Of a stretch of 64,000 nt of DNA, positions 42,338 through 60,677 are shown piece after piece. The stretch lies in assembly GCA_946616285.1 (NCBI GenBank), contig CAMOIT010000001.1, positions 32,530 to 96,529 of the forward strand. Reading direction: 5' to 3'. The notes under the pieces were generated by a model that was not told the DNA's origin, searched no databases, and worked only from the letters and a program-made list of their open reading frames with translations. Numbering within the stretch: the stretch's first letter is position 1; each line of letters starts with the position of its first letter. The position numbers were made by a program, and so were the translations under genes. Source of the DNA: an uncultured Bacteroidales bacterium (GTDB taxonomy: Bacteria; Bacteroidota; Bacteroidia; Bacteroidales; UBA932).

Positions 42338-42740
42338 CCTGTGAGACGTACTCGAACTGCTTGATGCCCAGAAGCTTGCCCTTCGCGCTGTAGGTGTACT
42401 GCACCTTCTTGCGCTGGAATTCGTTATACTCGAAGGTCTTGTAGGTCTGAAGGCGGTTGTATTCGTCGTATACAAGTTCTTTGGAAACCTTGCCGTCTGG
42501 GCCGTATTCGAAGCGCTTGCGCCACTTCTGCCCTGAACTGCCGTACTCGATTTCCTCAATCTTCTTGCCTTCGGCGTTGAAGGTGGTAACATGGTCCAGG
42601 ACCTTGTTCATGCCCTTGGGATCCGTGTTCCACTCCTTGATTACAAGGTTCTTCTTGTTTATTTTGGGCGTCTCCTGCGCCCCTGCAATCCCGAAGGAAA
42701 GCAGGGCGGCAGCAGCAATTATGAGCAGTCGTCTCATCAT
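42324..42740 (-). CDS. Secreted hypothetical protein with YD/RHS-like turns
   Basis: Signal peptide; repeated (F/Y)EY..dGk hairpins; overlaps the galE stop and the VTC start. Confidence 0.7.
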   Translation of the reverse strand: MMRRLLIIAAAALLSFGIAGAQETPKINKKNLVIKEWNTDPKGMNKVLDHVTTFNAEGKKIEEIEYGSSGQKWRKRFEYGPDGKVSKELVYDEYNRLQTYKTFEYNEFQRKKVQYTYSAKGKLLGIKQFEYVSQDAGQ

Positions 42741-43765
42741 TTCCCGGCGATGTGCTTCTCCCAGGCCCACGCGGCCTTGAGGGTTTCCTCTACGGTGCGG
42801 GTGGCCTTCCAGCCCATCTCGGTGTTAGCCTTGGTGGGATCGGCCCAGATCGCGGTTACGTCACCTGGTCTGCGTGCGGCGAATTTGTAGTTGAGTTTCA
42901 GGTTGTTGACCTTTTCGAAGGCATTTACCAGCTCCAGCACGCTAACTGGACGGCCGGTGCCCACGTTGAACACTTCGCAAGGCTCTTTCATTTTGCCTTC
43001 AATCATGCGCGTTACGGCAAAAACGTGCGCCTTTGCCAGGTCCACGATGTCGATATAGTCCCTCTGGCAGGTTCCGTCGGGGGTGGGATAGTCGTTGCCG
43101 AAAATGCTCAGGCATTCCCTCTTGCCGATGGCCGTCTGGGTGATGAAGGGCACCAGGTTGTTGGGCACTCCGCGGGGGAGTTCGCCGATAAGGGCGCTGG
43201 GGTGCGCGCCGATAGGATTGAAATAGCGCAGCAGGATGCCCTTAATGAGCCCGTCTGAGGCCTTTACGGTGTCCTGGAGGATGTCCTCGCACATGGTCTT
43301 GGTGTTGCCGTAGGGCGACATCGCAGGCTGACGGGGCGTATCTTCGGTCACTGGAACGGACTTGGGCTCGCCGTAAACAGTTGCCGACGAAGAGAACAGT
43401 ACATTGCATCCTCCGTGCTTCTGGGCGGCCTCAAGCACGTTCATGAAGCTCAAAAGGTTGTTTTTGTAGTACATCAGCGGCTTTGCCACGGACTCGCCCA
43501 CAGCTTTGAAGGCAGCGAAGTGAATCACCGCGTCGATGTGATATTTGCCAAAGAGCTTGTCCACGGCTTCGGCGTCGCAGAAGTCCATTTCCTCGAAGGG
43601 GATGTCGTCACGTCCAGTGATTTTTTTCACGCCCTCGAAGCAGGTACGGTCGCAGTTGGAGAAGTTGTCGGCCACGACCACCTCGTAGCCGGCTTCGATA
43701 AGTTCCACGGTTACATGGCTGCCGATGAATCCGGCGCCTCCGGATACCAGTACTGTCTTTTTCAT
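42737..43765 (-). CDS. galE: UDP-glucose 4-epimerase
   Basis: GGAGFIGSH, HFAAFKAVGES, FSSSATVYG, PYGNTK, LRYFNPIGAH. Confidence 0.96.
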   Translation of the reverse strand: MKKTVLVSGGAGFIGSHVTVELIEAGYEVVVADNFSNCDRTCFEGVKKITGRDDIPFEEMDFCDAEAVDKLFGKYHIDAVIHFAAFKAVGESVAKPLMYYKNNLLSFMNVLEAAQKHGGCNVLFSSSATVYGEPKSVPVTEDTPRQPAMSPYGNTKTMCEDILQDTVKASDGLIKGILLRYFNPIGAHPSALIGELPRGVPNNLVPFITQTAIGKRECLSIFGNDYPTPDGTCQRDYIDIVDLAKAHVFAVTRMIEGKMKEPCEVFNVGTGRPVSVLELVNAFEKVNNLKLNYKFAARRPGDVTAIWADPTKANTEMGWKATRTVEETLKAAWAWEKHIAGK

Positions 43766-43769
43766 ATCG

Positions 43770-46598: not shown

Positions 46599-47950
46599 TC
46601 TTCGCGGGAGAATTCACACTCCGCGAACATGGGGTCGATTACGATGTATGTGGACTTGATTTTTTCGGCCAGGAAGGCGTCCACGGCCTCCATCTGCTTG
46701 CTCTCCTGCACCTTTTCCAGGATCTGGGTGTAGTCGTTCTCGAAGGTGGCGGTGTGGGCGGGGAGTATCTTGTCCACGCGGATAATCTTGTACACCAGGT
46801 TGCCGCTCCGGCCCTGAAGGTAGCCCTCGTTGTCCAGGGACTCCACTGGTTCGGAGATTTCGCCGGGCTTCAGGTCTTTTACGGCGTTGTAGTCGGCCGG
46901 TTTCATCTGGTCTATCTCGAAATATGCCGAACCGGTTGAAGGATCGGCCATCTGGCCGCCGTTGGTGCGGGTGGCGTTGTCCTCCGAGTAGAATCGGGCG
47001 GCAAGTTCGAAGGTTATTTCGCCTTCTTGAATCTTGGTTTTAAGGCTGTCCAGCTTGCCGAAAGCCTTTTCGCGGTCTTCGGCCGTGTACTGGGGCTTTA
47101 TCAGGATGTGGCGGGCGTTGAACATGTCGCCGCGCTTGTCGATGACTTCGATGATGTGGAAGCCGTCAGGCGTCTCCACTATCTGGGAGATGGTGCCGGG
47201 CTTCAAGGCCATGGCTGCGTCGGAGAATGCCGGCCAGAAGATGGACTTGGATGCAAGGCCCAGTTCGCCGCCTCTCTTGGCACTGCCGGGGTCTTCGGAA
47301 TAGATTCGGGCCAGGGTGCTGAACTTTTCGCCGTTCATAATGCGCTCGCGAAGGCTCAGGAGCTTTTCTTTAACCGCCACAGCTGCAGCTTCCCTGTCCG
47401 GATAGATGCAGATCTGGCTCATCTGGTACTTTACCGGAACCACGGGGAGGTCTTCGGGGTCGGTGGCGTCTATGTACTTCTGTACGTCATAGGGGGTGAC
47501 GGTGGGGGCTTTTTCGGCCACCTGGTAGCGCTCCTGTTCGGTCAGGCTCTGCTCTTCAAGGGCTTTCTTCCATTCCTGACGCAGTTTGTAAAGTGGCTTG
47601 CCGAAGTATTTTTCCAGCTCTTCGTCGCCGCCAAGCTGGGTGCGGAACCAGTCGATGCGCTGGGTGAGGTTGCCTTCCACCATGTCGTTGTTGATGGTGA
47701 GGGAGTCCACCCTGGCCTGCATCAGGAACAGTTTGGTTTCCATGATGCTTTCCAGGATTTCGCAGCGCATGTCCTTGTCGCTTGAGGCACCACTTGCGCG
47801 CATCTGCTGGACTTCGGCCTCGATGTCGCTAAGGAGGATGGTTTCGCCGCCTACCACAGCCACGCTCTTGTCCACTATGCCGTTGTATTTCTGGGCGCTA
47901 AGGCCGATGCAGCAGAGGAGGCTTGCGAAAATAATGACTATCTTTTTCAT
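46580..47950 (-). CDS. surA: SurA-like parvulin peptidyl-prolyl isomerase
   Basis: VDKSVAVVG..ILLSD; two rotamase domains (FSTLARIYSEDPGS..GGELG, ARHILIKP). Confidence 0.88.
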   Translation of the reverse strand: MKKIVIIFASLLCCIGLSAQKYNGIVDKSVAVVGGETILLSDIEAEVQQMRASGASSDKDMRCEILESIMETKLFLMQARVDSLTINNDMVEGNLTQRIDWFRTQLGGDEELEKYFGKPLYKLRQEWKKALEEQSLTEQERYQVAEKAPTVTPYDVQKYIDATDPEDLPVVPVKYQMSQICIYPDREAAAVAVKEKLLSLRERIMNGEKFSTLARIYSEDPGSAKRGGELGLASKSIFWPAFSDAAMALKPGTISQIVETPDGFHIIEVIDKRGDMFNARHILIKPQYTAEDREKAFGKLDSLKTKIQEGEITFELAARFYSEDNATRTNGGQMADPSTGSAYFEIDQMKPADYNAVKDLKPGEISEPVESLDNEGYLQGRSGNLVYKIIRVDKILPAHTATFENDYTQILEKVQESKQMEAVDAFLAEKIKSTYIVIDPMFAECEFSREEWNKRK

Positions 47951-47952
47951 TT

Positions 47953-48825
47953 TCAGTAAATTACAAACTTATTGTTACGCACTGCGTCTTCCAGGAGGTT
48001 CTTTTCAAGCTCCACTTCCACCTGGTGCTTGCGCTCGCTCAGGATAAGGTCCCTGACTTTCTTTCTGCAGTATTCCAGCGGGGCTGTCTTGCCTTCCGGA
48101 ACCATCTCCGCGATATAGGCTATGTGCAGGTTGTCGCTGTCGTCTTTCCATTCCGCAAACTGCTGTTTTATTGAGCTTTGCAGGCTGCGGTATTCCGTTC
48201 CGAGCTCCTGGGCCAGGGTTATAATATCCATCCAGCTGTCCGATGCGTCCACGTACTTCAGGGCCACTTTCGAGGCCAGGGAATCGGCCTTGGCGTTTTC
48301 TTCGATATCGTCCGAGGCCATCTGCTTCTTAAGCTGCTTGATGCTTTTGCTGCCGGCGGGGATAATCATGTAGCGGGCTTTTACCACGGGGCGGTCCAGG
48401 CGGAAACGGGCGGGATTGTCGTTGTAGTACTTTTCCGTTTCCTCGTCTGTAATCAGGGTGTCCAGCCTCTGGTCCACGTACAGCTGCTCGTAGCGGTATT
48501 TCAGGAGGGTTTCGCGGTAGCGCTCGAGCTCTTCGGTCACGTCTTTTTCCTGGTCCGAGAGCTGTTCTTCGGCCATGTCCAGGAGGAGGAGGTTTTCGGC
48601 CCAGGCGTTTATCCACTGGCGGGCAAGGGCGGCGCTGTCGGCGGGGGAGGCCCCGGCCGGGATGTAGTTTTCCAGCTGGCTGCGGAAGAGTTTATGGTCG
48701 CCCACTTTCGCCACTACTTCGCCGCTGAAAAGCTCAGTGGCGGTGTCCTGGATCTGGCTCACCATCTTGCAGGAGGCGGCCGATGCAAGGACTATTGCGG
48801 TAAGTATGATTGCGCGCGCGTTCAT
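47953..48825 (-). CDS. PPIase-associated conserved lipoprotein
   Basis: Lipobox AASC; VVAKVG..L; upstream of surA; TATATTTG promoter box at 48835-48842. Confidence 0.7.
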   Translation of the reverse strand: MNARAIILTAIVLASAASCKMVSQIQDTATELFSGEVVAKVGDHKLFRSQLENYIPAGASPADSAALARQWINAWAENLLLLDMAEEQLSDQEKDVTEELERYRETLLKYRYEQLYVDQRLDTLITDEETEKYYNDNPARFRLDRPVVKARYMIIPAGSKSIKQLKKQMASDDIEENAKADSLASKVALKYVDASDSWMDIITLAQELGTEYRSLQSSIKQQFAEWKDDSDNLHIAYIAEMVPEGKTAPLEYCRKKVRDLILSERKHQVEVELEKNLLEDAVRNNKFVIY

Positions 48826-48848
48826 ATATTCTTGCAAATATAGCAATT

Positions 48849-50480
48849 TTATTCGGTAAGTATGCCGATAAGTTCCATCATGGCTTGTCGCAGCTGCGAC
48901 GGGCTTGCTACTGCGCCGTTTACGAGGAAGGAAAAGGTGATGTCCGGCAGGCCGTCATCGCCAAGGATGTAGCCCGAATAGCAGAGGACGCCGGTCATGG
49001 AGCCGCTTTTCATCCTTATTTTATCGGCATTTTTGACTTTTACCGCCCAGAGGGTGCCTTCCCCGGGCATGGGGATTGTTTCAAGGAAGTCTTTGAAGGC
49101 GGAGCTGCCTTTCATTGCGTCCAGGAAGTCCGCCATCCATTCGGGGGAGACCCGGTTCATGGCCGAAAGGCCGCTGCCGTCGTAGTGGGCGATCTTTTCT
49201 GTGTTCAGGCCAAGTGCCTTCAGGACAACGTCTTGCGCTACCAGACAAGAGTCGTAGACGGCCATTTCCGTTGCGGCTTCGCCCATTGCGCGGAGCATTG
49301 CTTCGGCATAGAAATTATCGCTCCGGAAGTTGGTGATTTTTGCAATTTCTTTGAGGGCGGGGGACTGCGTGGTGCCTATGAGGGTGGGTTTTCCGGCTTT
49401 TTCGCGGGGGATGAAGTCGGCTTCTCGGATGTAGCCGTTGCGGTCTATGTCGGCGTATTGTCCGCTTACTTCCCAGCCGGTTGTTTTCAGATTGCGCCAG
49501 AAATAGTAGGCGCAGGTCAGGGCGCCGTATTTGTTGGCGAAGTGCTCGGTTTTGGGCTTCCGGTCAGTGGCGAAGGAGCCTCTGAGCTCGGAGTAGGGGG
49601 CCAGGTCCGTGGTGAAAAGGTACAGGCTGTTGCCGGTGCCTGCAGGGCCGGTTATGCTCTGGTTGGCGAAGTGCATCCAGGGCGTCTCGGGGTAGGTCTG
49701 GTGCGCATTTACTGGTTGGCCTTCCTCGGCGGCGCTCACTTCCAGGTCGATGGCGTTCTGGTAGAAGCAAAGGGCGTTCGATCCGGTGCCGTAGTAGGTT
49801 CCCATGTCGTCGTACTGCCATGATGCGTGCTCCAGATGGCCCTCCCAGGCGCTTCCGTCGCCGATTATCCGGCCGTTTATCCTATCGATGCCGGCGCTTT
49901 TCAGCAGCTGCTTCCATTTCCAGAACAGGGCATCGGCCTTGTAAGCGATCGAATCCTTTGCGCCGATGGTCGGATCCCCGCCGCCGATGATGTAAACATC
50001 GCCCTCCAGCGTGCCCTCGCTGATGGTTCCGGTGTAGCCGATGCCCGTTTCGAAGCGGTAGTCCGGGTTGAAAGCATGCAGCGCTGTGCCGGTTGTGACC
50101 AGCTTGAGGTTTGACGCCGGCACCAACCTCTGCCCGCCGTTATGGCTCAAAATCACCTTACCGTCCCTGTCCCGTGCCACCACGCCCCATGCGCACCCCT
50201 CCAGCGGGCCCTTCTGCTGTGCTTTTTCAATCCAGGCTTTCGCCCGCAGGGTTTTGGTGGGCTGTGTTTCGGCCTGGGGTTTTGTCTGAGCCGTCGCCCG
50301 CTTCTGCTTTTCTGCCGGCTGCTGCTGTTCCTGAGCTTGCGCAGCCGCTGGCTGTGCTCCCGGCGCTTCAGTTGCCATCTTTGCCGCCGGCTGTTCAACT
50401 GGTTTTCCTTCCACTGCTGGCTGAGCTTCGGCCATCTGTACGGCAAAAAATATAGAAATAACAGTAAAAATACGTTTCAT
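48849..50480 (-). CDS. dacB: D-Ala-D-Ala carboxypeptidase/endopeptidase PBP4 (peptidase S13)
   Basis: PASNLK (SxxK), GGGDPT, SDNFYAE (SxN), DGSGLS..N, KSGSM. Confidence 0.93.
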   Translation of the reverse strand: MKRIFTVISIFFAVQMAEAQPAVEGKPVEQPAAKMATEAPGAQPAAAQAQEQQQPAEKQKRATAQTKPQAETQPTKTLRAKAWIEKAQQKGPLEGCAWGVVARDRDGKVILSHNGGQRLVPASNLKLVTTGTALHAFNPDYRFETGIGYTGTISEGTLEGDVYIIGGGDPTIGAKDSIAYKADALFWKWKQLLKSAGIDRINGRIIGDGSAWEGHLEHASWQYDDMGTYYGTGSNALCFYQNAIDLEVSAAEEGQPVNAHQTYPETPWMHFANQSITGPAGTGNSLYLFTTDLAPYSELRGSFATDRKPKTEHFANKYGALTCAYYFWRNLKTTGWEVSGQYADIDRNGYIREADFIPREKAGKPTLIGTTQSPALKEIAKITNFRSDNFYAEAMLRAMGEAATEMAVYDSCLVAQDVVLKALGLNTEKIAHYDGSGLSAMNRVSPEWMADFLDAMKGSSAFKDFLETIPMPGEGTLWAVKVKNADKIRMKSGSMTGVLCYSGYILGDDGLPDITFSFLVNGAVASPSQLRQAMMELIGILTE

Positions 50481-50529
50481 ACCTGCAAAAATACGCCTTT
50501 TTTCAGCATAAATAGTGCCATACACCCCT

Positions 50530-50660
50530 TATGTCTGCACCTTTTGCCCTGGCGCCAAATCGTAAGTGCCTGAGTATGAACTCAATGCTATATTCATGTC
50601 TGCTCCATTTGCGCAGACATGAAACCAGGAAGTTGCTGATAATTAGGCAATTGCGGTGTG
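50530..50660. repeat. Palindromic repeat family A (ATGTCTGC-N9-GCAGACAT plus arms), with a half copy at 50531
   Basis: Core at 50596-50620; other cores at 51178, 52866, 55670 and 56457. Confidence 0.85.
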
Positions 50661-50680
50661 AATATCTACCTCACGCGTGC

Positions 50681-50790
50681 TGCCTAAAGCACATTCATCG
50701 ACATTATTTCCACAATTTGTGCTTTATCTAGCTATGATGCTCTGCCTAAAGCACACTTTTTTGCATTATTTCAGCTTTCTGCGCTTTACC
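50681..50790. repeat. Repeat family D: two 62-bp units of TAAAGCACA-N24-TGYGCTTTA
   Basis: Motif pairs at 50685/50718 and 50747/50780. Confidence 0.8.
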
Positions 50791-50894
50791 CTACTTCGTG
50801 GAGGGGGGGTAAAGAACACCGACTTGGGTCTGGTGGCACATTTTGAGCTTTAGTGGCTGGCAAAGGGAAGGCTTCCCCCCAAAGGTCGCTTTTA

Positions 50895-51087
50895 AAATGG
50901 GCCGATGCTCCCTTGGGGGGAATCCCTCCCTTTGCCGCTACGAGAAGCATCTTGGCCGCGTTTGCATATAATCGCCATTATATGCGTTGTGGCTGCAGAC
51001 GCGGCAAGGTTTTCGGCGATTTTGGTCGTTTTTTCTGCCGCGTTTGCAAAAAAACTGGTACTGACGCATTCTGTTTGCAGACGCGGC
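50895..51087 (+). repeat. Repeat family B, copy 1
   Basis: GCCGCGTTTGCA and TGCAGACGCGGC at 50955, 50994, 51037 and 51076; spacers 27/31/27 nt. Confidence 0.9.
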
Positions 51088-51143
51088 CTCGTGCCCGTGC
51101 CGAAGAAGAACCGCAACAGAGTCAACGAAGCACACGCTTTGTG

Positions 51144-51228
51144 GTAAGTTCTTGATAATGAGTCCATTGCTGGATTCATGTCTGCGCAAATGGAGCAGAC
51201 ATGAATCTGGGAAGTCGCTGTACGTCAG
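51144..51228. repeat. Repeat family A copy
   Basis: 51175-51206 is the exact reverse complement of 50592-50623. Confidence 0.85.
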
Positions 51229-51243
51229 ATAGATAGCGTATAC

Positions 51244-51624
51244 CTACGCCAGGTCGCCGAGGTCGCTGTCGGTGGCGGAGGGGAACCATTCGGCCAGCTT
51301 GGCGCGGGCTTTGGCCTTGATTTCGGGAGTGATGGCAGTGGCGACGTAGGCGACGGCGGCGATGAGGGCGGCCCAGTCGTCGACCATGCCTCCGAAGGGT
51401 ATGAAATCGGGGATAAGGTCCAGAGGCAGAATCATATAGCCCAGGGCGCCGGCGATGACGGCTTTGTATTTGGCGGGGGTGAGGGGATCGACCAGGGTGT
51501 AATACAGGACCAGCGCGTAATATACCAGCTTCGCGCCAACTTTGACCGCTATGGCCGATAGCTTTTTCCAGAAATCGCCATCGTTGAAATGGCCTTTGTA
51601 CTTTTGTAACTCGTTGCTGTTCAT
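51244..51624 (-). CDS. YkvA/DUF1232 membrane protein
   Basis: ALGYMILPLDLIPDFIPFGGMVDD. Confidence 0.92.
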   Translation of the reverse strand: MNSNELQKYKGHFNDGDFWKKLSAIAVKVGAKLVYYALVLYYTLVDPLTPAKYKAVIAGALGYMILPLDLIPDFIPFGGMVDDWAALIAAVAYVATAITPEIKAKARAKLAEWFPSATDSDLGDLA

Positions 51625-52775
51625 TTCTTTGAGATTTTATCGACAATAAGTGCTATGGCGCCGTCGCCGGTGACGTTGCAGGCCGTGCCGAAGCTGTCCA
51701 TGGCAATGTATAGGGTGATCATCAGAGCCTGCTGTGTGGGGTCGAAGCTGAGGATGCCGGACAAGACGCCGAGTGCCGCCATGATGGCTCCGCCAGGGAC
51801 GCCGGGTGCCGCAACCATCGTCACGCCGAGCATTAGGATGAAGCCAAAAACTGTGCCGAAGTCGAAGGGCATGCCCAGCATAAACATCAATGCAATGGCG
51901 CAAGACGTGATTTTCAGGGTGCTGCCGGACAGGTGGATGGTGGCGCAAAGAGGCACGGTGAAGCCGGCGACGCCTTCGCTGACGCCGTTGGAAATGGTGC
52001 TTTTAAGCGTGACAGGTATCGTCGCGGCCGATGAAGACGTTCCAAGAGCGGTGAGATATGCCGGGAGCATTTTCGAAAGCAGTTTAAACGGGTTCCGGCC
52101 GGTGACAAGACCTGCGACGCAGTACTGCAGGACCAGCAGCACCAGTGTCATTGCGAAAATGATGGCAACTATTGCGATGAACGACCCAAGCACGGGTCCC
52201 ACTTTCCCCGCTGCCGCCATGTCCATAAACAGGCCGAAAATATAGAAAGGCAGGAGCGGAATTAGCACTTTTTCGATACTAAGAACGACAATCCGCTTAA
52301 GCTCGCCGAAGCCTTTCATCAGGGCATCGGCTTTGGAAAAAGCGATTCCAAGGCCCAGCATGAACGACAGCACCAGCGCCGTCATGACGTCCATCAGAGG
52401 CGGTATCGCGATGGTGAAATACGCGGGGAACTCCTTCCCGGCCTCCTCCAGGGCGGCTATCGACCCTTTGCTTACCATCGACGGGAAAAGTTCGACGCTA
52501 AACAGATAGGCGAAAAGTCCTGACAGAACGGTGAAGCCATACGCCAGCGCAACCGTAATGATTAGCATTTTTCCGGCCTTGCGCCCCACTTCGGCAATGG
52601 CAGGCGTCACGAGTCCCACGATAATCAGCGGAATGAAGAACCTCAGCAGCTGGTCGAAAACTCCGGTAAAAGTGTTGCCTGCCCGCACTACCCATCCCGG
52701 CACGAACTGCCCCACCGCCACGCCTACAACGATGGCAATGAGCACCTTGACAACAAGCGGTAATTTCTTTTTCAT
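51621..52775 (-). CDS. Dicarboxylate/amino acid:cation symporter (DAACS)
   Basis: GTSSSAATIP, PLCATIHLSG, APGVPGG, DSFGTACNVTGD. Confidence 0.93.
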   Translation of the reverse strand: MKKKLPLVVKVLIAIVVGVAVGQFVPGWVVRAGNTFTGVFDQLLRFFIPLIIVGLVTPAIAEVGRKAGKMLIITVALAYGFTVLSGLFAYLFSVELFPSMVSKGSIAALEEAGKEFPAYFTIAIPPLMDVMTALVLSFMLGLGIAFSKADALMKGFGELKRIVVLSIEKVLIPLLPFYIFGLFMDMAAAGKVGPVLGSFIAIVAIIFAMTLVLLVLQYCVAGLVTGRNPFKLLSKMLPAYLTALGTSSSAATIPVTLKSTISNGVSEGVAGFTVPLCATIHLSGSTLKITSCAIALMFMLGMPFDFGTVFGFILMLGVTMVAAPGVPGGAIMAALGVLSGILSFDPTQQALMITLYIAMDSFGTACNVTGDGAIALIVDKISKK

Positions 52776-52831
52776 AGGCTGTTACAAATATAGCAATTTT
52801 ATGCGATTCTTTATCGGTGTGGGTGCGGAAT

Positions 52832-52916
52832 GTATTTAGCTCTGTATCAGCTATTTCCTGGATTTATGTCTGCTCCGCCAGCGCAGACATGAATTTGGGA
52901 AGTTGCTGATTATCAT
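52832..52916. repeat. Repeat family A copy in the divergent DAACS/nhaC intergenic region
   Basis: atcagctatttcctggatttatgtctgc-N9-gcagacatgaatttgggaagttgctgat. Confidence 0.85.
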
Positions 52917-52924
52917 TATCTTTG
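52894..52924 (+). promoter_or_regulatory. Consensus Bacteroidetes promoter of the NhaC-family gene
   Basis: TTTG(52894)-N19-TATCTTTG(52917). Confidence 0.7.
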
Positions 52925-52929
52925 CAACC

Positions 52930-54213
52930 ATGAAAAAGATGAACGGATTGCTGGCGCTGAGTCCGCTGCTGGTTTTTATGGTAGTTTACGTGGCCGGGTC
53001 GATACTGGCCAGGGATTTCTATAAGGTGCCGGTGGCGGCGGCGTTCATTATAGCATCGGCCTACGCCATGCTCATCACGCGCAGCGTGGACAAGACAGAT
53101 GACAAGATTGCCATATTTTCTGCGGGAGCGGGCAATAAGAACGTCCTTCTGATGATATGGATTTTCGTGCTGGCTGGGGCGTTTGCGGCTACGGCCAAGG
53201 ACATCGGCGCAATTGATGCAACCGTTCACGCAACGCTGAACATCCTCCCCGGGAAGTTGTTGTACGCTGGCCTGTTCCTGGCATCGTGCTTCGTGTCGAT
53301 GGCCGTGGGAACCTCCGTGGGTACGATTGTGGCGCTGGTTCCGATTGCTTCCGGCATTGCGGCGGGGATAGGGTCCAGTGTGCCGCTCATCACTGGAATC
53401 ATAGTAGGCGGTGCATTCTTCGGCGACAATCTCTCGTTCATATCGGACACAACTGTTGCGGCGACCAAAACGCAGGGCTGTTCCATGCCGGACAAGTTCA
53501 AGGTGAATCTATGGATTGCCGCCCCAGCAGCGCTGATTATCACATTAGTGTACGTACTTATGGGTTTAAAGGTCGAAGCAACCCCGCAAGTCCCTGCCGG
53601 AGACTGGGTTCTGATGCTCCCGTACCTGATGGTTATAGTGCTGGCTATAATGGGGGTAAATGTTGTTACCGTGCTGGCGCTCGGCATCGGCGTTAATGGT
53701 ATAATCGGCTGGTGTACAGGCGCTTATGATTTCGTGGGATGGTTGTCGGCAATTGGTGCGGGCATAGGCGGAATGGGCGAGCTCATCATTGTGTCCCTGC
53801 TGGCCGGCGGTATGCTGGAGCTTATACGGTATAACGGCGGGCTGGATTTCATTATAGGCCGATTGACACGCCGAATCAGAGGTCCGCGCGGGGCCAGTGC
53901 GTCCATTGCGGCGCTGGTGTCCCTGGTGAACGTGTGCACCGCCAACAATACCATTGCGATCATTACGGTCGGACCGCTTGCCAAGGATATATCGGCACGG
54001 TTCAATCTGGATCCGCGCAAGACAGCATCCATTCTGGATACCTTTTCATGCCTGGTTCAGGGGGTGCTGCCATACGGCGCGCAGATGCTCATGGCCGCCG
54101 GCCTGTCCGGTGTTTCTGCTCTGTCTATTATCGGCAACCTGTACTACCCCTTCGCCCTGGGCCTCATGGCCGTCCTGTCCATCATCTTCCGCTTTCCCAG
54201 GCTCCGTACGTGA
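52930..54213 (+). CDS. NhaC family (Na+/H+ antiporter-like) transporter
   Basis: SMAVGTSVGT, GGAFFGDNLSFISDTT, DKFK.N, ANNTIAI, PYGAQ. Confidence 0.9.
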   Translation: MKKMNGLLALSPLLVFMVVYVAGSILARDFYKVPVAAAFIIASAYAMLITRSVDKTDDKIAIFSAGAGNKNVLLMIWIFVLAGAFAATAKDIGAIDATVHATLNILPGKLLYAGLFLASCFVSMAVGTSVGTIVALVPIASGIAAGIGSSVPLITGIIVGGAFFGDNLSFISDTTVAATKTQGCSMPDKFKVNLWIAAPAALIITLVYVLMGLKVEATPQVPAGDWVLMLPYLMVIVLAIMGVNVVTVLALGIGVNGIIGWCTGAYDFVGWLSAIGAGIGGMGELIIVSLLAGGMLELIRYNGGLDFIIGRLTRRIRGPRGASASIAALVSLVNVCTANNTIAIITVGPLAKDISARFNLDPRKTASILDTFSCLVQGVLPYGAQMLMAAGLSGVSALSIIGNLYYPFALGLMAVLSIIFRFPRLRT

Positions 54214-54222
54214 TGTCTCTGA

Positions 54223-55545
54223 TCAGCGCGCTTCGTCAACTGGTAGCCATTCAATATTTGGAAAGCCCTCCGACAAGGCGTCGAGTTCGTCTTTGTCATA
54301 CCAGACCACGTTCGTGTGGTGACGGGAGCGGAACGATTGGATGACTTTGTCTTCGGTCCCGGCATTGTTGTATACGGTCCAAACGGCGGTAGGAGGACAG
54401 GTGTAATCCACCAGGCCCGCCCTCAAGTACAGTTTCCCGCGAAACATCCCGGCCAGAAGGGCGCCGTCGTAGTACGGAAGAATCTTCCGGCCTTGTTTTG
54501 ATGCCGGAACGTTTTGGCGCCGGGTCGAAAAAGGCCATCCTCCATAGCGGTTCAGCAGGATACCGCCGTGGTCGCATAGCGCGGGCTCATCGGCATAGAC
54601 ATGCGTAATCCTGGGGTCGATACCGCCCAGCGCCAGCGCCTGCCCTCCGCCCTGGCTGTGTCCAGCCACCATGATATTCCGGCCATCCCATTGAGGGAGC
54701 GTTACAAGATAGTCTACAAGCCTTACCAGCCGAAGGTACATCAGGCGGAAATACCACGACTCGCGGTCCTTCAGGGGCTGGTCGGAATAATCTTTCAAAA
54801 GGCCATCGGCCAGTTCCTGGTAGTATTCTTCGGGCGCGCCGTCTTCCATGCCGTGAGCATTGATGTCGACGCCTATAGTGCCGCTCAAGGCCGTTCGGCA
54901 GGCCGTTTTCAACTGGCTCTGCGTTCGGTTTTCGGTAATTTCCGTGGCACCGTGCGTCTGGATGCGGATGGGAAGAGTGCGGACATCGGCCCCAAGGGGC
55001 ATACACACATAGGCATTGACAGGAAATCCTTCGTGCATCGACAACTGAACGTGCCAGCAAGTCACCTGGCCGATGTATTTTTCCGGCGCCTTGACGCTGT
55101 CAATCTTCACCGTCATGGCATTCTTCCGCATCCGGGATATTTCCTTTTTCCAGAATTGCTTCAAATTGCACGGAGCCTTGTAGCCGGGCCGAAAGGATTC
55201 AGGATTTACCAGCCAGCCGATGTCGATCTGCCGGTCGTCCCTGGTATTTACGATGACGGCCACCCATTTGGCGGAATCGCAGACTTCGGCATATATTTCC
55301 TTGTAATCGGCCGAACCCGGGCAGACGCTTCTTTTTTCGCGCGTCTTGCCTCCAACCCGGATTTCCATTTCCAGCGAATCCGGAGAATCGGGACAGCAAG
55401 CTAATACGCGGACAGTGTCTCCCTTCGAATAAAGCCCGTCCGGACGGTTGAGTTTAAGCCGTACATCCTGCCCATTGGCATGGAACAGGCTCAGGATGAA
55501 GAAAAGGAGCACCGCGGCGGCGCATTGCTTGCTTATCAGTTGCAT
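54223..55545 (-). CDS. Acetyl xylan esterase-like (AXE1/CE7) alpha/beta hydrolase
   Basis: GHSQGG nucleophile elbow, INAHG, GLVDYTCPP; TTTG-N20-TAATTTTG promoter at 55571-55602 (minus). Confidence 0.85.
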   Translation of the reverse strand: MQLISKQCAAAVLLFFILSLFHANGQDVRLKLNRPDGLYSKGDTVRVLACCPDSPDSLEMEIRVGGKTREKRSVCPGSADYKEIYAEVCDSAKWVAVIVNTRDDRQIDIGWLVNPESFRPGYKAPCNLKQFWKKEISRMRKNAMTVKIDSVKAPEKYIGQVTCWHVQLSMHEGFPVNAYVCMPLGADVRTLPIRIQTHGATEITENRTQSQLKTACRTALSGTIGVDINAHGMEDGAPEEYYQELADGLLKDYSDQPLKDRESWYFRLMYLRLVRLVDYLVTLPQWDGRNIMVAGHSQGGGQALALGGIDPRITHVYADEPALCDHGGILLNRYGGWPFSTRRQNVPASKQGRKILPYYDGALLAGMFRGKLYLRAGLVDYTCPPTAVWTVYNNAGTEDKVIQSFRSRHHTNVVWYDKDELDALSEGFPNIEWLPVDEAR

Positions 55546-55635
55546 GGTTATGTAGAAGTAATGCTAGCTACAAAATTAGTCCAAATCCCGGGCAAATACA
55601 AATTGGAGCGGTTTTTTGGGTGGGGCCTGCTTGGC

Positions 55636-55720
55636 GTATGTGGTTTATTATAAGGCGCTTCCCGGGTTTATGTCTGCGCTGATGGAGCAGACATGTTTTT
55701 GGTAAGTGTCTGATTATGAG
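55636..55720. repeat. Repeat family A copy
   Basis: Core atgtctgcgctgatggagcagacat at 55670-55694. Confidence 0.85.
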
Positions 55721-55792
55721 GCTGGTAAAAGTATGGCCATCCGCCGAAGGACGATTATGAGAGGGTCGATGTGCCCTTCGGGGGATGCCATA

Positions 55793-56321
55793 CTTTTGCT
55801 TCGCGCTAAATCTCTTTTGCCGCGTTTGCACGGAATCGCTATTATGTGGCTTACAAATGCAGACGCGGCAATGAAAACGGCCAATATTGCGAAAAACCGT
55901 GCCGCGTTTGCACTCAGATTGCACCAGGAGCGGAATTTTTGCAAACGCGGCGAAGTAATAGGGAGGGCTCCTAAGTCAGAGGTATTTCCTCGTTCCCATT
56001 GTTCTGGAAGTCAGGAAATATCTGGCCTGCAGCAAGGAAAAGAAGAGTTCTTCAACGACTTTAACAGGGACGAAGAAGACGTGTAGCCCCTAGCATTCAA
56101 CACTTTTCCAACCAGCTACGGTCATGTTCTTGTCCTGCTACTATTTACCACCGTGCCCGGTCTGCGTAGAAAGGGTCGCGGGTCTGCTTGCTAACGTCGC
56201 GGGTCCGTTAAAAACCTGCAGACCGGGGACGCCGGAATGCATATAATGGGGTTTTGTGTCGCGGGTCTGAGCCATTTTTACAGACCAGGGACGCGAGGGC
56301 TACGGACCTGGCACACGGCCT
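55793..56321 (+). repeat. ~530-bp direct repeat, copy 1 (family B + linker + family C)
   Basis: Aligns without gaps to 60149-60677 (offset 4356); the central ~400 bp appear identical. Confidence 0.95.
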
Positions 56322-56391
56322 TCCGTACGGCACGCAGATGCTCATGGCCGCACTGTCAATCATCTTCCGATTCCCTAGGCTACGTACTTGA
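56320..56391 (+). pseudogene. Remnant of the 3' end of an nhaC allele
   Basis: Translates LPYGTQMLMAALSIIFRFPRLRT*, matching the C-terminus of 52930-54213 with a 75-bp internal deletion. Confidence 0.9.
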
Positions 56392-56422
56392 GGGGCAGGC
56401 TATTTTTTCGGTTGGTTTTTTG

Positions 56423-56540
56423 ATAAAGTGCTGGTTGTCAGTGAATTCCTTGATTTATGTCTGTTCTGTTTGCGCAGACATGAATTCGATAATAGCCTCA
56501 TTAGCAGTCACTTCCCGGAAAGATGTCTGCGCCGATAGCG
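56423..56540. repeat. Repeat family A copy plus a half copy
   Basis: atgtctgttctgtttgcgcagacat at 56457-56481; atgtctgc at 56523. Confidence 0.75.
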
Positions 56541-56693
56541 GGATTATTTGCATTTAATTGTGATAATATAGGTTTAATCCCTATATTTAAAGTGTCGATT
56601 ACAGTGGCCCTCACGCCGCATTACAAAACAATTTGAGAGAATGGCTTAGAGAATAGTGTTGATCGAGAATTATACGAATAAGTTTCATTAGAA

Positions 56694-57581
56694 ATGAAGT
56701 ACGCCACAACAATAGAGGAACAGATTAAAATACTGAGAGACAGAGGTCTGATTATCTCGGATGAGGAGAAGGCTAGGGAAGTGCTGCTGGACATAGGCTA
56801 CTACCGCTTGGGCTCGTATTTGTTTCCGTATGAGTTGACCTATCCCTGTAAAAAGAATAGGACGCATAAGTTCAAAAGTAGTACTCGTTTTGAGGATGCT
56901 TTGGATTTGTACTATTTCGATTCGGATCTGAGGATGCTGCTACTGAGATATCTTACCCGTATTGAAATCAACCTAAGAACCCACATTATCTATTATGTGT
57001 CAAACATTTACGAAGATAATCCCTGTTGGTTTATAGATGATGAAGTGATGGATGTTAAATTTGTCGACTCATTCGATATTGATATTTACACCGAGCAGTT
57101 CAAAAAGCATCCTGTCATTGCCGACCATCACAAGAAGTATCCCGAAGACAAGTACGCCCCGGCCTGGAAGACGATTGAGCATATGACCTTTGGCGCAGTT
57201 TATCAATTATTCTTTAGCATAAAAGACAAAAATGTTCAGTCTGCCATATCAAAACACTACGACGTTGACAAACTAACCATCTTCACAAGTTATTTTAACG
57301 CCATCCGTTATTTGAGAAATCAGTGTGCACATGGAGATGTTCTGTTCGACATGAAATTGGCCACCCCTTTGAAGTCCGGTCCTGCAGGACAGCTCAACTC
57401 ATTCACTAACAGCAACATAATTGGTGCAATCGAAGTTGTTAAATACTTTTTGAAACAGATATCGCGGCATCGGTATCAAGACTTTTGTAAACAACTCGAA
57501 GCCCTTCTGGATAGCGTTGAGAATGATGTGGTTGCCGAAGTCCTTAACGACATATCGGGTTTCGACATGAAGTTTTCATAA
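56694..57581 (+). CDS. Abi_2 (AbiD/AbiF-like) HEPN ribonuclease toxin
   Basis: TIEEQI..L..RGL, IGYYRL, YYFD..LR, IE..LR, PAW..IE..TFG and HEPN RNQCAH (RX4H); AT-rich. Confidence 0.9.
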   Translation: MKYATTIEEQIKILRDRGLIISDEEKAREVLLDIGYYRLGSYLFPYELTYPCKKNRTHKFKSSTRFEDALDLYYFDSDLRMLLLRYLTRIEINLRTHIIYYVSNIYEDNPCWFIDDEVMDVKFVDSFDIDIYTEQFKKHPVIADHHKKYPEDKYAPAWKTIEHMTFGAVYQLFFSIKDKNVQSAISKHYDVDKLTIFTSYFNAIRYLRNQCAHGDVLFDMKLATPLKSGPAGQLNSFTNSNIIGAIEVVKYFLKQISRHRYQDFCKQLEALLDSVENDVVAEVLNDISGFDMKFS

Positions 57582-57583
57582 TA

Positions 57584-57615
57584 TTTGTATGAAATCAAAA
57601 TAAATCCTATATTTG
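57584..57615 (+). promoter_or_regulatory. Consensus promoter immediately after the Abi stop codon
   Basis: TTTG(57584)-N20-TATATTTG(57608), with no ORF downstream. Confidence 0.8.
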
Positions 57616-57619
57616 CACC

Positions 57620-57702
57620 GAAGTGCGCATATTGTCTACCATCGCTGTATGTGGCACTATAAAAAAGGAAGTCGGCCTCCGGAGAGATTCGGAGGCTTTT
57701 TT
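57620..57702 (+). ncRNA. Candidate AbiF-associated antitoxin small RNA (~80 nt)
   Basis: Own promoter; hairpin AGUGC-GCAUA/UAUGU-G-GCACU (57622-57658); A-rich linker; terminator hairpin. Confidence 0.7.
57675..57702 (+). terminator. Rho-independent terminator
   Basis: gcctccgga-GAGA-ttcggaggc followed by T6. Confidence 0.9.
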
Positions 57703-57725
57703 CTATTATGATTCAAAGGGATTAT

Positions 57726-57954
57726 AAATGGGCCGATGCTCCTTTCGGGGGATGCCATACTTTTGCTTCGCGCTAAATCTCTTTTGCCGCGTTTGCAGGA
57801 AATCACCATTCTGTGGCCTGCAAATGCAGACGCGGCAACGAAAACGGCCAATATCGCGAAAAACCGTGCCGCGTTTGCAGCTACAGTGCGCTGGAAGGCC
57901 GTTTTTTTGCAGACGCGGCGAAGCAATAGGGAGGACTCCTAAGTCAGAGGTATT
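57726..57954 (+). repeat. Repeat family B, copy 3
   Basis: Motifs at 57786, 57825, 57868 and 57908; spacers 27/31/28 nt; shares head and tail with other copies. Confidence 0.9.
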
Positions 57955-58037
57955 CACATTGGCAGTTTGGTGAGGACCACCTGCCTCCCCAGGGCCGCTA
58001 AAATCCGGTAGAAAGTGGATACGGTGGGTACCGTACG
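57954..58037 (-). pseudogene. Remnant of the 3' end of an HTH antitoxin gene
   Basis: RTVPTVSTFYRILAALGRQVVLTKLPM* versus RTVPTVSTFYRIVAALGMQVVLTKLPPII* of 59414-59704. Confidence 0.9.
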
Positions 58038-58311
58038 GTAAGTTGTTCAGTTTCCATTCAAACCTCAGCTGGACGCAGCGATACAATACATACGGGACTA
58101 TTAAAAAACAGTGCTGGAAACTCTATAGGGCTATGCCCGCATTATACGAATATACGATTGCTTTCTTAAGGACGTATTTGGCACGGGGCGTATCTTCTGG
58201 CGATAGGGGCGGAAATAATCGAGAAGACCTTTCTACCTTTCAAAAATTTGCACCCGCCGCTCTTTTGAATTATCTTTGTACAATGGCACAAAAGTCCGAC
58301 ACGGCCGTTCA

Positions 58312-59340
58312 ATGCTTATGACAAAGATGATCGTCATGCCCCTCGGGGAATCCGACTACAACGAATTACTGCGACAAGCTGTCGCAGTAATCGACCAGGC
58401 CAGAGCATCCATCGCGCTCCACGCCAATAGTACCATATCCACCGCCCATTGGAATCTTGGGCAGCTTCTGCATGAGCGAAAGCTGGAAAGCAGGCACGGC
58501 AGCGGTGTGGTGAATCGTCTCTCATCGGATCTGAAGCAGCGGTTCCCGGATATGGGCGTTTCTCCCAGGAATCTATGGGACATGAAACGTTTTTACTTGC
58601 GGTATGTCAATGCCGATGAAAATCTGCGACAGGCTGTCGCAGTTTTACCATGGGGGCATAACTTGCTGATCTTGAATAAGGACTTGTCTGATGACCAAGT
58701 TTTATTCTATGCAATAGAAGTACTATCCAAAGGCTGGTCCCGTGACATGTTGCTCCACGCCGTGAAGGGTGACTACTACCGCAACCTGATGGCCACTCCT
58801 CAATCCAACAACTTCAATAAGACACTACCGGCACCTATTGCCGATTATGCCAATGAAGTGTTCCGTAGTCGTTACAATCTTGGCTTCCTTGGTGCTCGGG
58901 AACCCATGAAGGAACTAAAGCTGGAGCATCGCTTGGTGAAAAAGATAACCCGTTTCATCATGGAATTGGGCAAAGGCTTCACATTCATAGGGAATCAGTA
59001 TATCCTACCATTCAACGGAAAGGACTACAAGGTGGACATGCTTTTCTTCCATCGAGGCTTGCACCGGATGATAGCCATTGATTTAAAGGTTGGCGAGTTC
59101 AAGCCTGAATATGTTGGCAAGATGAACTTCTACCTCACGCTCTTGGACCGCATGGAAAAAGCCCCGGACGAGGAAGCGTCCATTGGCCTCATCCTCTGTG
59201 CCGAGAAAGACCATCTGGACGTCCAGGTTGCACTGCAGGATGTCAATAAGCCGATAGGTGTGGCCGAATACCAATACCTTCTTCCCAAGGAACAGATTCT
59301 CCAAATCGTCTCCTCCGAATTGAAGAAATCCGACAAGTAG
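58312..59340 (+). CDS. YhcG/DUF1016 family PD-(D/E)XK nuclease
   Basis: LPWGHN, GWSR, FIMELGKGFTFIGNQY, DMLFFH, IDLK.GEFKPEY.GKMNFYL, IGLILC. Promoter TTTG-N20-TATCTTTG at 58247-58278. Start codon uncertain. Confidence 0.92.
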   Translation: MLMTKMIVMPLGESDYNELLRQAVAVIDQARASIALHANSTISTAHWNLGQLLHERKLESRHGSGVVNRLSSDLKQRFPDMGVSPRNLWDMKRFYLRYVNADENLRQAVAVLPWGHNLLILNKDLSDDQVLFYAIEVLSKGWSRDMLLHAVKGDYYRNLMATPQSNNFNKTLPAPIADYANEVFRSRYNLGFLGAREPMKELKLEHRLVKKITRFIMELGKGFTFIGNQYILPFNGKDYKVDMLFFHRGLHRMIAIDLKVGEFKPEYVGKMNFYLTLLDRMEKAPDEEASIGLILCAEKDHLDVQVALQDVNKPIGVAEYQYLLPKEQILQIVSSELKKSDK

Positions 59341-59413
59341 GCCGACATTTCCATACCCTCTCTGTGGTCGCGCTCCACTCATTCAGCACCATATGGCGCG
59401 GGCAGGATACGAA

Positions 59414-59704
59414 TCAAATGATTGGAGGCAGTTTGGTCAGGACCACCTGCATCCCCAAGGCCGCAACAATCCGGTAGAAAGTGGAAACGGTGGGCACGGT
59501 GCGGCCATGCTCCACTTTGGAGACGTATGCCTTATCGGCCCCGATACGCTTGGCCAGCTCGGACTGCGTGAGTCCGGCTTCCTTCCTTGCTTCCCGAAGG
59601 ATATCGGTATTGTATTCTTCCCATGCCCTATCCTCTTCGGCCTTCCAGGTTTCAGATCCAATCGGGCCGAACTTTTCGACAAGGTGAGCGGTTATGTCGT
59701 ACAT
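59414..59704 (-). CDS. XRE/HigA-like HTH protein (orphan antitoxin)
   Basis: LREARKEAGLTQSELAKRIGADKAYVSKVE.G..PTVSTF. Confidence 0.88.
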   Translation of the reverse strand: MYDITAHLVEKFGPIGSETWKAEEDRAWEEYNTDILREARKEAGLTQSELAKRIGADKAYVSKVEHGRTVPTVSTFYRIVAALGMQVVLTKLPPII

Positions 59705-59747
59705 ATTTTTGGGGGATACTATCGATGTCCCTTCTACTATCGGCTTT

Positions 59748-59915
59748 CGTGCCAGGCCAGCGGGGGAGATGTCGCAGGTCTGCAGGAGAATGACGCAGGT
59801 CCGCTGAAACCCTGCAGAGCTGGGACGCTGTAGCGCACAGAATTAGGTTTCATGTCCCAGGTCTGGCGTGTTTTTTCAGACCTGCGACGTTATGGCTAGA
59901 GACCTGGCACACGGC
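59748..59915 (+). repeat. Repeat family C copy (GTCGCRGGTC-type motifs)
   Basis: Same seven-motif order as 56151-56320 and 60507-60676, with diverged spacers. Confidence 0.85.
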
Positions 59916-60148
59916 AGGCTATGAATCAGTGCCTTTTTGGAAGTGCCAGCCTTGCTAACGCTATTGATTTATTTTTTAATGTTTCGCCAGACCAGTTCAT
60001 ATTTGCGGGCGATAGGGACCAAATTATCCCCAGACCACATTGCATCGGCAATGGATCACGGAGGACAGACAGCGTGCTTAAAAGACGGTTCAGGCATCCT
60101 TGTACGAATCTGAGGGCTTCATCTTTTTTTTCATGAGTTCCTCATGGG

Positions 60149-60677
60149 CTTTTGCTCCGCGCTAAATCTCTTTTGCCGCGTTTGCACGGAATCGCCATTC
60201 TGCGGCCTGCAAATGCAGACGCGGCAATGAAAACGGCCAATATTGCGAAAAACCGTGCCGCGTTTGCACTCAGATTGCACCAGGAGCGGAATTTTTGCAA
60301 ACGCGGCGAAGTAATAGGGAGGGCTCCTAAGTCAGAGGTATTTCCTCGTTCCCATTGTTCTGGAAGTCAGGAAATATCTGGCCTGCAGCAAGGAAAAGAA
60401 GAGTTCTTCAACGACTTTAACAGGGACGAAGAAGACGTGTAGCCCCTAGCATTCAACACTTTTCCAACCAGCTACGGTCATGTTCTTGTCCTGCTACTAT
60501 TTACCACCGTGCCCGGTCTGCGTAGAAAGGGTCGCGGGTCTGCTTGCTAACGTCGCGGGTCCGTTAAAAACCTGCAGACCGGGGACGCCGGAATGCATAT
60601 AATGGGGTTTTGTGTCGCGGGGCTGAGCCATTTTTACAGACCAGGGACAAAATGACTACAGACCTGATACACGGCCT
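60149..60677 (+). repeat. ~530-bp direct repeat, copy 2
   Basis: Matches 55793-56321. Confidence 0.95.

Follow-up and report, generated by a model that had tools for sequence, protein, structure and literature searches.

The stretch examined here lies at 50.5–60.7 kb of a 64,000-nucleotide window (C1:32530-96529) from the metagenome-assembled genome (MAG; G000) of an uncultured rumen Bacteroidales bacterium (1.62 Mb, 112 contigs, 70.6% complete, 53.6% GC), where families of short palindromic repeats stand among nhaC, an esterase gene and a small defense islet made up of an AbiD-type abortive-infection gene (56694-57581, plus strand, outside the repeats), yhcG/PDC-S02 and helix-turn-helix (HTH) genes. 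A preliminary description of this sequence had distinguished four families, A to D, and had proposed that they are protein-recognized sites at which defense and toxin–antitoxin cassettes turn over, by analogy with integrons or with bacterial interspersed mosaic elements (BIMEs). All four families proved to be real, at the claimed places and with the claimed geometry, with no matches in shuffled controls, though the inventory was incomplete in that a fifth family, F (50680-50790, plus strand; two tandem hairpin units GCCTAAAGCACA-N24-TGTGCTTTA), had been missed. Stable folds are predicted for all repeat units (z scores between -3 and -5). The shuffled controls rule out a chance origin, and an assembly artifact is ruled out by the identical arrangement found in independent assemblies. 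As had also been stated, the repeats are absent from the first 50 kb, with no A, B, C, D or F element and only two lone 8-mers at window positions 1-50000. A search of 48-64 kb against Rfam (E ≤ 1) returned no family matching the region, the only hits being chance miRNA-like matches on hairpin D.

Family A was described as ATGTCTGC-N9-GCAGACAT, and five full copies of this core (starting at 50596, 51178, 52866, 55670 and 56457, versus none in 100 shuffles) and two half-copies (50531 and 56523) are indeed present, but the consensus of the copies shows the true unit to be larger, a near-perfect palindrome of ~95 nt whose outer ends are TAA..TTA and which contains side modules of CTGATAATCAG, a sub-stem (TTCCCGG) and, at its center, an 11-bp stem closed by a 9-nt loop. 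Copy 1 spans 50561-50654 (core 50596-50620, loop TCCATTTGC, half-core at 50531-50538; fold z -3.8), copy 2 spans 51144-51236 (core 51178-51202) with its loop opposite in orientation to that of copy 1, copy 4 spans 55636-55728 (core 55670-55694), and copy 5 together with a half copy (56500-56536) occupies 56423-56536 (core 56457-56481). Copy 3 (52832-52924, core 52866-52890) forms a perfect long hairpin whose right arm enters the start region of nhaC. This arm (52890-52932) continues into a TATCTTTG box of the Bacteroidetes -7 type, TAnnTTTG, a few bases before the nhaC ATG, and copy 3 may supply or overlap the nhaC promoter.

Family B consists of the 12-mer GCCGCGTTTGCA repeated in alternating orientation with gaps of 27/31/27(28) nt, at 50955, 55819, 57786 and 60175 (none in shuffles), each unit being a 133-nt double hairpin (>27<31>27<). 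Copy 1 (50955-51087, plus strand) is directly preceded by the family D hairpin (50859-50936), with 27-nt arms (50859-50885 and 50910-50936; 89% complementary) around a 24-nt loop and a fold z of -4.8, and D and B are also paired on contigs C18, C42 and C7. Copies 2, 3 and 4 have in common a D' element and a 35-nt tail without counterpart elsewhere in the genome, which marks them as local segmental duplicates rather than independent insertions. Genome-wide, the B spacers fall into a few types (alpha, beta, gamma and delta) that occur in either orientation. The orientation of each of the three spacers varies independently between copies (window 50955-51087 and 55819-55951; C18:11681, C42:200, C98:3277), the window copies reading alpha+ beta- gamma- versus alpha+ beta+ gamma+ on C18 and C42; matches (22/27 and 23/31) are obtained solely with the reverse complement. 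These orientations fit a flip-flop of any segment lying between inverted 12-mers.

Family C is represented by three copies of ~186 nt, C1 (56134-56319), C' (59730-59915; 71% identical) and C2 (60490-60675; 95%), each containing GC-rich hairpins with loops of 10–12 nt. Copy C1 ends a composite module (55729-56319, plus strand) that runs from D' (55729-55795) through B copy 2 (55819-55951) and a 35-nt tail plus linker (55952-56133) to C1 itself, and that is 97% identical to 60149-60677, the two forming direct repeats of ~530 bp. Exactly at the end of C1 begins a 3' remnant of nhaC (56320-56391, plus strand; 84-91% identical to 54067-54213), which is also found in strain L063. Farther on, half a D', B copy 3 (57786-57919) and the 35-nt tail together occupy 57720-57954 (plus strand), a unit that in L063 adjoins the stop-codon end of an HTH gene; in the window it is followed by a 3' remnant of such a gene (57961-58038, minus strand; 88% identical to 59427-59504) that ends at a strain breakpoint (58038/58039). 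Beyond this lies a strain-variable block, the first part of which (58039-59915) holds yhcG/PDC-S02 (58276-59340, plus strand), the HTH gene HTH' (59414-59704, minus strand) and C' (59730-59915), and the second part of which (59916-60677, plus strand) is composed of 193 nt, a partial D', B copy 4 (60175-60307), the linker and C2 (60490-60677). The linker at 55952-56133 was considered as a decayed HTH gene, and no similarity was detected. A 126-amino acid (aa) open reading frame (ORF) at 55706-56086, called as a 117-aa gene in another assembly, covers D', B and the linker; most likely this is a spurious product of the repeats, yet its C-terminal part (…EEFFNDFNRDEEDV) is protein-like.

A genome-wide census of palindromic families based on k-mer counting revealed at least 10 interspersed families. 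Family A has 44 copies in the MAG, with six tandem units of 95-nt period forming an array at C45:2201-2700, family F has 45 hairpin matches, and family B has 37 hairpins at 18–19 loci, all with gaps of 27/31/27 ± 1. Most B copies adjoin housekeeping genes, and contigs C37 and C46 each carry three copies within 4–5 kb that part genes for an acyl-CoA ligase-type protein, DUF4251, YbaK, RidA, UvrA, V-ATPase subunits, ThiF, a pseudouridine synthase and a cytidine deaminase. Mapping the motifs across the genome, as the preliminary description had proposed, does not tie them to defense or variable genes as integron-like cassette sites: A and B are dispersed genome-wide, and the 50.5–60.7 kb stretch is just 43rd of 850 ten-kb windows in repeat density, with several regions richer. 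The analogy to BIMEs, on the other hand, is upheld by the B layout at 18–19 loci, while that to integrons is not. The repeats are intergenic and biased to the 3' ends of genes, and of the 38 A copies that could be classified, 20 fall between convergent genes, an arrangement that makes up 17% of all intergenic regions. Matches "inside" ORFs involve only small spurious ORFs or N-terminal over-extensions; as our ORF proxy over-calls genes (92% coding) and the repeats themselves make ORFs, such counts for B are artifacts.

When up to two mismatches were allowed, family A gave 41 matches in its own genome. Across 24 congeneric species the sole match, in G003, had two mismatches and was at chance level, and the 16 genomes taken from other families of the order had none. 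In all, family A is missing from 60 congeners. In a set of 185,579 species genomes, the exact A pattern was matched twice (in Streptomyces and in a gammaproteobacterial MAG), approximately the number expected by chance.

Consistent with the preliminary description, no recombinase was found among the window ORFs examined, and no genome-wide search for IntI was made. Its suggestion that a co-occurring HUH transposase be sought was fruitful: seven genes for Y1/HUH proteins resembling REP-associated tyrosine transposases (RAYTs; REP, repetitive extragenic palindrome) are found elsewhere in the genome. A search with Pfam Y1_Tnp identified two of them, on C23 and C16 (24 bits versus a cut-off of 23), and a match to NCBIfam REP_Tyr_transpos was obtained with an E value of 2.6e-10. 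In an alignment of 15 sequences built around the 302-aa C23 protein, H58, H60, Y118 and N122 are invariant and N121 nearly so, within the motifs DH[LIV]H and YxxNNPVE. Sequence comparison of the C23 protein with Protein Data Bank (PDB) chains was marginal (E ~1) and called for comparison of folds; the AlphaFold2 model (pLDDT 92.5) has as its best PDB match 4ER8_A (E 3.6e-5, target TM 0.68, rmsd 2.5 over 137 columns), the E. coli RAYT with a bound REP hairpin, with the TnpA proteins of IS608 and ISDra2 next-best. A profile made from the alignment recovered all seven paralogues, of ~300 residues, each with the HuH and Tyr motifs and an HTH-like tail.

The seven paralogues, named here for their contigs, each have a different hairpin family no farther than 210 nt away. 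The C23 gene has copies of family A on both sides, at 45 nt and 761 nt; C37 lies 12 nt from family B, C40 lies 5 and 67 nt from C-like hairpins, and C4 lies 128 nt from a five-unit array of family F, while C16, C26 and C17 neighbor families E, G and H, respectively. Families A, B and F had been delineated in the window ahead of the discovery of the genes, so that their pairings constitute independent tests. Between the A-cognate gene and the second flanking A lies a 216-aa ORF without a family match (L001:1979-2629 = C23:19937-20587, minus strand), which could be a partner gene or a mere neighbor.

In congeners, the orthologues of the A-type gene almost all have species-specific hairpins on both sides, and flanking hairpins are likewise found with orthologues in at least eight congeners. 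The G010 orthologue (55% identity) is flanked by AATCCTCGGC-N9-GCCGAGGATT, of which there are 66 copies in G010 and none in four other genomes, and the consensus of 20 copies has the loop set (TCCATTTGC, TCTTTTTGC and others), the CTGATAATCAG modules and the TAA..TTA ends seen in A, the central stem alone being replaced. Orthologues of the C37 gene in G010, G070 and G050 (65-68% identity) are followed, ~34-200 nt downstream of the stop codon, by hairpins whose stems are 12 bp and whose loops are 27-28 nt long, arranged in G070 in the full two-hairpin B layout; their stems (GCCGCGATTGCA, GCCGCGTTGACA and GCCACGTTGACA) differ by changes compensated on both arms. These B-type variants are low-copy in the sister species (3–5 hairpins), implying that B expanded in the species studied here. 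Similarly, C40 orthologues carry C-type hairpin doublets, GTCGCAGG..CCTGCGAC in G050 and GCAGGTGG..CCACCTGC in G070. In these sequence comparisons, hairpin and gene have diverged together, loops and geometry being kept as the stems turned over by compensated changes. Such co-divergence of gene and hairpin is the accepted signature of REP-RAYT pairs. The earlier suggestion that the repeats are recognized by a protein is very probably correct.

To follow the repeats between strains, we used metagenome contigs ~99% identical to the MAG, which gave a second strain, Ga0310697, with ~170 kb of shared sequence, and exact-protein look-ups, which gave further strains; the esterase look-up returned solely a near-identical copy of the window, and look-ups of the DUF975 protein returned no match. 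In six congeners, nhaC is not accompanied by any other conserved gene of the locus, which makes between-species mapping of breakpoints impossible. The L063 sequence is collinear with window 41250-58038 at 98.9% identity and is without yhcG and the second B-linker copy. Its HTH gene is ~99% identical to the window remnant over the 3' 78 nt and ~96-97% identical to HTH' elsewhere, and its C copy (C*) is a mosaic whose left part corresponds to C' and whose right part corresponds to C1/C2. This arrangement is explained by two direct-repeat deletions from a window-like ancestor, one between the HTH remnant and HTH' and one between C' and C2, or perhaps by the reverse order of events. The left end of the variable block lies inside an HTH gene and not at a repeat. 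Of the gene remnants said to begin at repeat edges, that of nhaC at 56320 does abut C1, whereas no breakpoint lies where B meets the HTH remnant, as a whole HTH gene occupies this place in L063.

Other strain differences fall within or beside single repeats. In three independent samples (L064, L065 and L066), B copy 1 is missing 102 nt (50963-51064), and what remains of it is a short palindrome, GCCGCGTT-CTGTT-TGCAGACGCGGC, which could be a deletion footprint or the state before expansion. The loop of D (50886-50909) is inverted in L064 (1177-1253) with collinear flanks, a strain-level loop inversion. On contig C3, a 1.7-kb segment (DUF975, LemA and tRNA-Leu) beside A copies is inverted in Ga0310697 (C3:7640-9440, L069 3641-5440, versus L053:8129-9808), which has one A copy fewer, and the MAG orientation recurs in a third sample. 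Two inverted A copies are present in the MAG, where each of the new junctions carries the 8-mer GATATAAC/GTTATATC, versus one A copy in the other strain; this pattern resembles the inversion-plus-duplication of intramolecular replicative transposition, with arms unlike those of a simple copy. The C45 array of A has fewer units in the second strain (L049), and the MAG and Ga0310697 agree in all remaining A copies over the ~170 kb that they share. Nor do the repeats behave as Bacteroidales invertons, in which a nearby invertase flips a promoter between inverted repeats and both orientations coexist within a population: the inverted A pair enclosing nhaC and the esterase gene shows a collinear arrangement in every strain seen, and the C3 inversion takes in two genes plus a tRNA and is accompanied by the gain or loss of an A copy. 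No integron-like cassette exchange was seen in the strain comparisons. The strain alignment thus bears out the preliminary description in that repeats take part in rearrangements and C termini are recurring junctions, but not in its placing of breakpoints at motifs, as the variable block has its left end inside a gene. The repeats are dynamic and recombinogenic, through repeat-internal change and ordinary recombination between repeats and not through fixed-site cassette exchange.

Taken together, we consider it likely that these are atypical REP/BIME-type families maintained by RAYT-like Y1/HUH paralogues, and that the 50.5–60.7 kb stretch is one of several zones in which they have accumulated. 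Under this model, A, B (with D as its companion hairpin), C and F would be short hairpin-forming units multiplied in the intergenic DNA of one species, each family being the cognate of one RAYT-like paralogue with an N-terminal TnpA-REP fold, HuH motif, catalytic Tyr and HTH-like tail. By analogy with TnpA-REP and IS200/IS605, the paradigm on which we model catalysis and mobilization, the enzyme would act at the replication fork, where it would bind the hairpin in single-stranded DNA, cut at its foot and rejoin the ends, which would copy or move units, often beside existing ones, and give rise to nests such as that at 50.5–51.2 kb. Resident copies would then serve as passive substrates for recombination (loop flips, deletion or duplication of modules, inversion of segments), and it is for this reason that remnants and strain differences would touch repeat edges. 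The genes of the locus are short, separately transcribed units (the AbiD/PDC-S02/HTH defense islet and transporters), so insertions there would be tolerated.

Many features of known REP systems are matched. As in E. coli REP/BIME and TnpA-REP (4ER8), there are tens of copies of extragenic hairpin repeats, B units alternate in orientation with fixed-length linkers of few types as in BIMEs, and low-copy Y1/HUH genes are flanked by their own repeats, the N-terminal domain of the modeled C23 protein being closest to 4ER8. Differences from E. coli are that the B hairpin pairs two neighboring non-palindromic 12-mers across a 27-nt loop and that the proteins, ~300 aa long, bear an HTH-like tail and fall below the NCBIfam RAYT cut-off. 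The REPIN-RAYT systems of Pseudomonas (Bertels and Rainey 2011, PMC3116915) likewise have long symmetric hairpin units (~95 nt in A), species-specific families, several families with their own RAYT per genome, clustering and tandem copies, although A is one central hairpin within a longer palindrome with CTGATAATCAG modules and not two inverted 25-mers, and here the seven paralogue/family pairs occupy a ~2-Mb Bacteroidales genome. Several transposase/repeat pairs per genome are on record for Pseudomonas, Stenotrophomonas and Rhodopirellula, and REPs lie mainly between convergent and co-directional ORFs (Di Nocera 2013, PMC3733652). Within the phylum, Bacteroidetes TnpA-REP genes have at their flanks "atypical secondary structures" that are repeated in the genome (Quentin 2018, PMC6006769), and the proteins described here share this property with subclasses 2.6 and 2.4 (PMC6006769), a YxxNNP-type Tyr motif in the C23 lineage with Bacteroidetes TnpA-REP (PMC6006769, PMC3733652), and an HTH-like C-terminal extension with subclass 2.1.2 of the HTH-tailed 2.1/TIRYT group (Quentin 2018, PMC6006769; Di Nocera 2013, PMC3733652). 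For subclass 2.1, however, no REP-like sequences were reported near the genes (PMC6006769), whereas every paralogue here has them, and subclass 2.6 proteins are shorter, at ~179 aa.

Several observations weigh against this interpretation. The hairpins are without a GTAG tag at their foot, both in the A consensus and in the B copies, and CGTC occurs only within the GACGCGGC arm variant of B; for lack of either tag, we class the repeats as atypical REPs. The scores of 40.4 and 30.6 miss the equivalog cut-off of 80 bits of NF047646 (REP_Tyr_transpos), for which reason the proteins are called RAYT-like and not equivalogs, and they are without the W[QE] motif between HuH and Tyr. The E, G, H and C-like families were defined from gene flanks, which makes these pairings post hoc; hairpins of window copies C1 and C2 differ from the C40 type by 1–2 bases per arm, no enzyme was identified for D, and the MAG is ~70% complete. 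In the ~170 kb of the second strain there is no clean empty/filled-site pair for A, B or C. Finally, C termini recur as exact junctions (56319/56320, 59915/59916 and 60677/60678), which passive recombination explains incompletely. Because module ends coincide exactly with C termini at these three places, we leave a small share of probability to an active role of the hairpins, in which RAYT-like enzymes would cut hairpin feet and move or create the ends of gene-carrying modules (such as those ending at 56319, 59915 and 60677); this we regard as doubtful, and the same cutting chemistry might flip the B and D loops. If true, hairpin-bounded single-strand "peel-and-paste" would be a route of Bacteroidales defense-gene turnover. 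We know of no description of a cargo-carrying use of REP/RAYT systems.

The idea from which this analysis set out, that the motifs are sites where a site-specific recombinase inserts and excises defense and toxin–antitoxin cassettes, draws on real features of the locus, since repeats bracket the short gene units of a small defense islet (AbiD, PDC-S02/YhcG, HTH), the nhaC remnant starts at the exact end of C1, the extra segment of this strain (59916-60677) runs from one C terminus to the next, and the yhcG-containing block varies between strains; like attC sites in integron cassettes, the repeats are imperfect palindromes between short gene units with structure conserved beyond sequence. We nevertheless think it hardly probable. 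Elsewhere A and B part housekeeping genes, the genes of the region lie on both strands, the variable block begins on the left within an HTH gene, two ordinary direct-repeat deletions account for L063, and the other strain differences fall inside single repeats and not at cassette borders. The only repeat-linked enzymes are Y1/HUH proteins. Unlike integron cassettes, the repeats are without R/L core sites and are dispersed beside housekeeping genes, no cassette swaps are seen, and IntI, attI and Pc are lacking here as far as the window ORFs go. Very unlikely, too, are classical miniature inverted-repeat transposable elements (MITEs), deletion derivatives of an insertion sequence (IS) with a DDE transposase that would be moved in trans via terminal inverted repeats with target-site duplications. 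Family A does have the size of ERIC or Correia elements as a ~95-nt near-perfect palindrome, its G010 counterpart has terminal GCTGG..CCAGC repeats, and the GATATAAC/GTTATATC 8-mer at both C3 junctions together with the extra A is what intramolecular replicative transposition would produce; ERIC, Correia (NEMIS) and RUP elements are also ~100-nt intergenic palindromes, probably co-transcribed with neighbors. Those elements, however, have DDE transposases, terminal inverted repeats and target duplications, whereas no target duplication was established here, no IS with matching ends was seen in the 70% complete genome, and the only genes regularly adjoining the repeats, on both sides in the case of A, are Y1/HUH genes. 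Family B, as alternating 12-mers at fixed spacing, is without MITE-type terminal repeats, and the compensated stems and constant loops between species argue for recognition of a hairpin and not of duplex terminal repeats.

A role for the host, as terminators, mRNA stabilizers or binding sites of regulators or nucleoid proteins kept by selection, would suit the strong enrichment of A between convergent genes, the stable folding of all units, the strictly fixed spacing of B and the secondary roles known for E. coli REP/BIME (PMC2817692). As the primary explanation we find it unlikely, because full stem turnover between sister species and absence from most congeners do not suit a regulon under conservation, the tandem arrays, half copies and indels between strains are what selfish DNA typically shows, and Rfam gave no family for the region; it is compatible with REP/BIME-type families as a secondary function. 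The preliminary description had named, as findings that would speak against its proposal, repeats evenly spread without a link to breakpoints, or repeats that are the ends of a known IS or MITE; taken as repeats lacking a special link to breakpoints or belonging to a known class of small mobile element, this is largely what we see. Most likely, the repeats are an unremarkable, if very rich, instance of a type of selfish DNA already known and do not make up a cassette system of the integron kind.

What had appeared to be a locus-specific cassette system thus becomes a genome-wide picture in which RAYT-like genes, at least seven in one small rumen Bacteroidales genome, each have a hairpin family as partner. 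To our knowledge, what is understood of REP/RAYT biology comes almost wholly from Proteobacteria. The hairpins here are without the GTAG tag, keep their loops as stems turn over and include a BIME-like unit with 27-nt loops, and the orthologous pairs in sister species offer ready material for studying the evolution of recognition. The repeats also mark strain-variable places, including that of the candidate defense gene yhcG/PDC-S02, and they fragment MAG assemblies and generate spurious ORFs. The most abundant family in the genome, GTCATACCGAGCGAAGCGAGCGTATCTCC (~66 copies), and its partners GGAGATTCTCTCGGCC and GCCTCGGAATGACA show presence/absence of 76-103 nt between strains (C5:8318-8422, C28:~4100-4260 and L051:468-543), apparently within open reading frames, and may be in-frame intragenic repeats.

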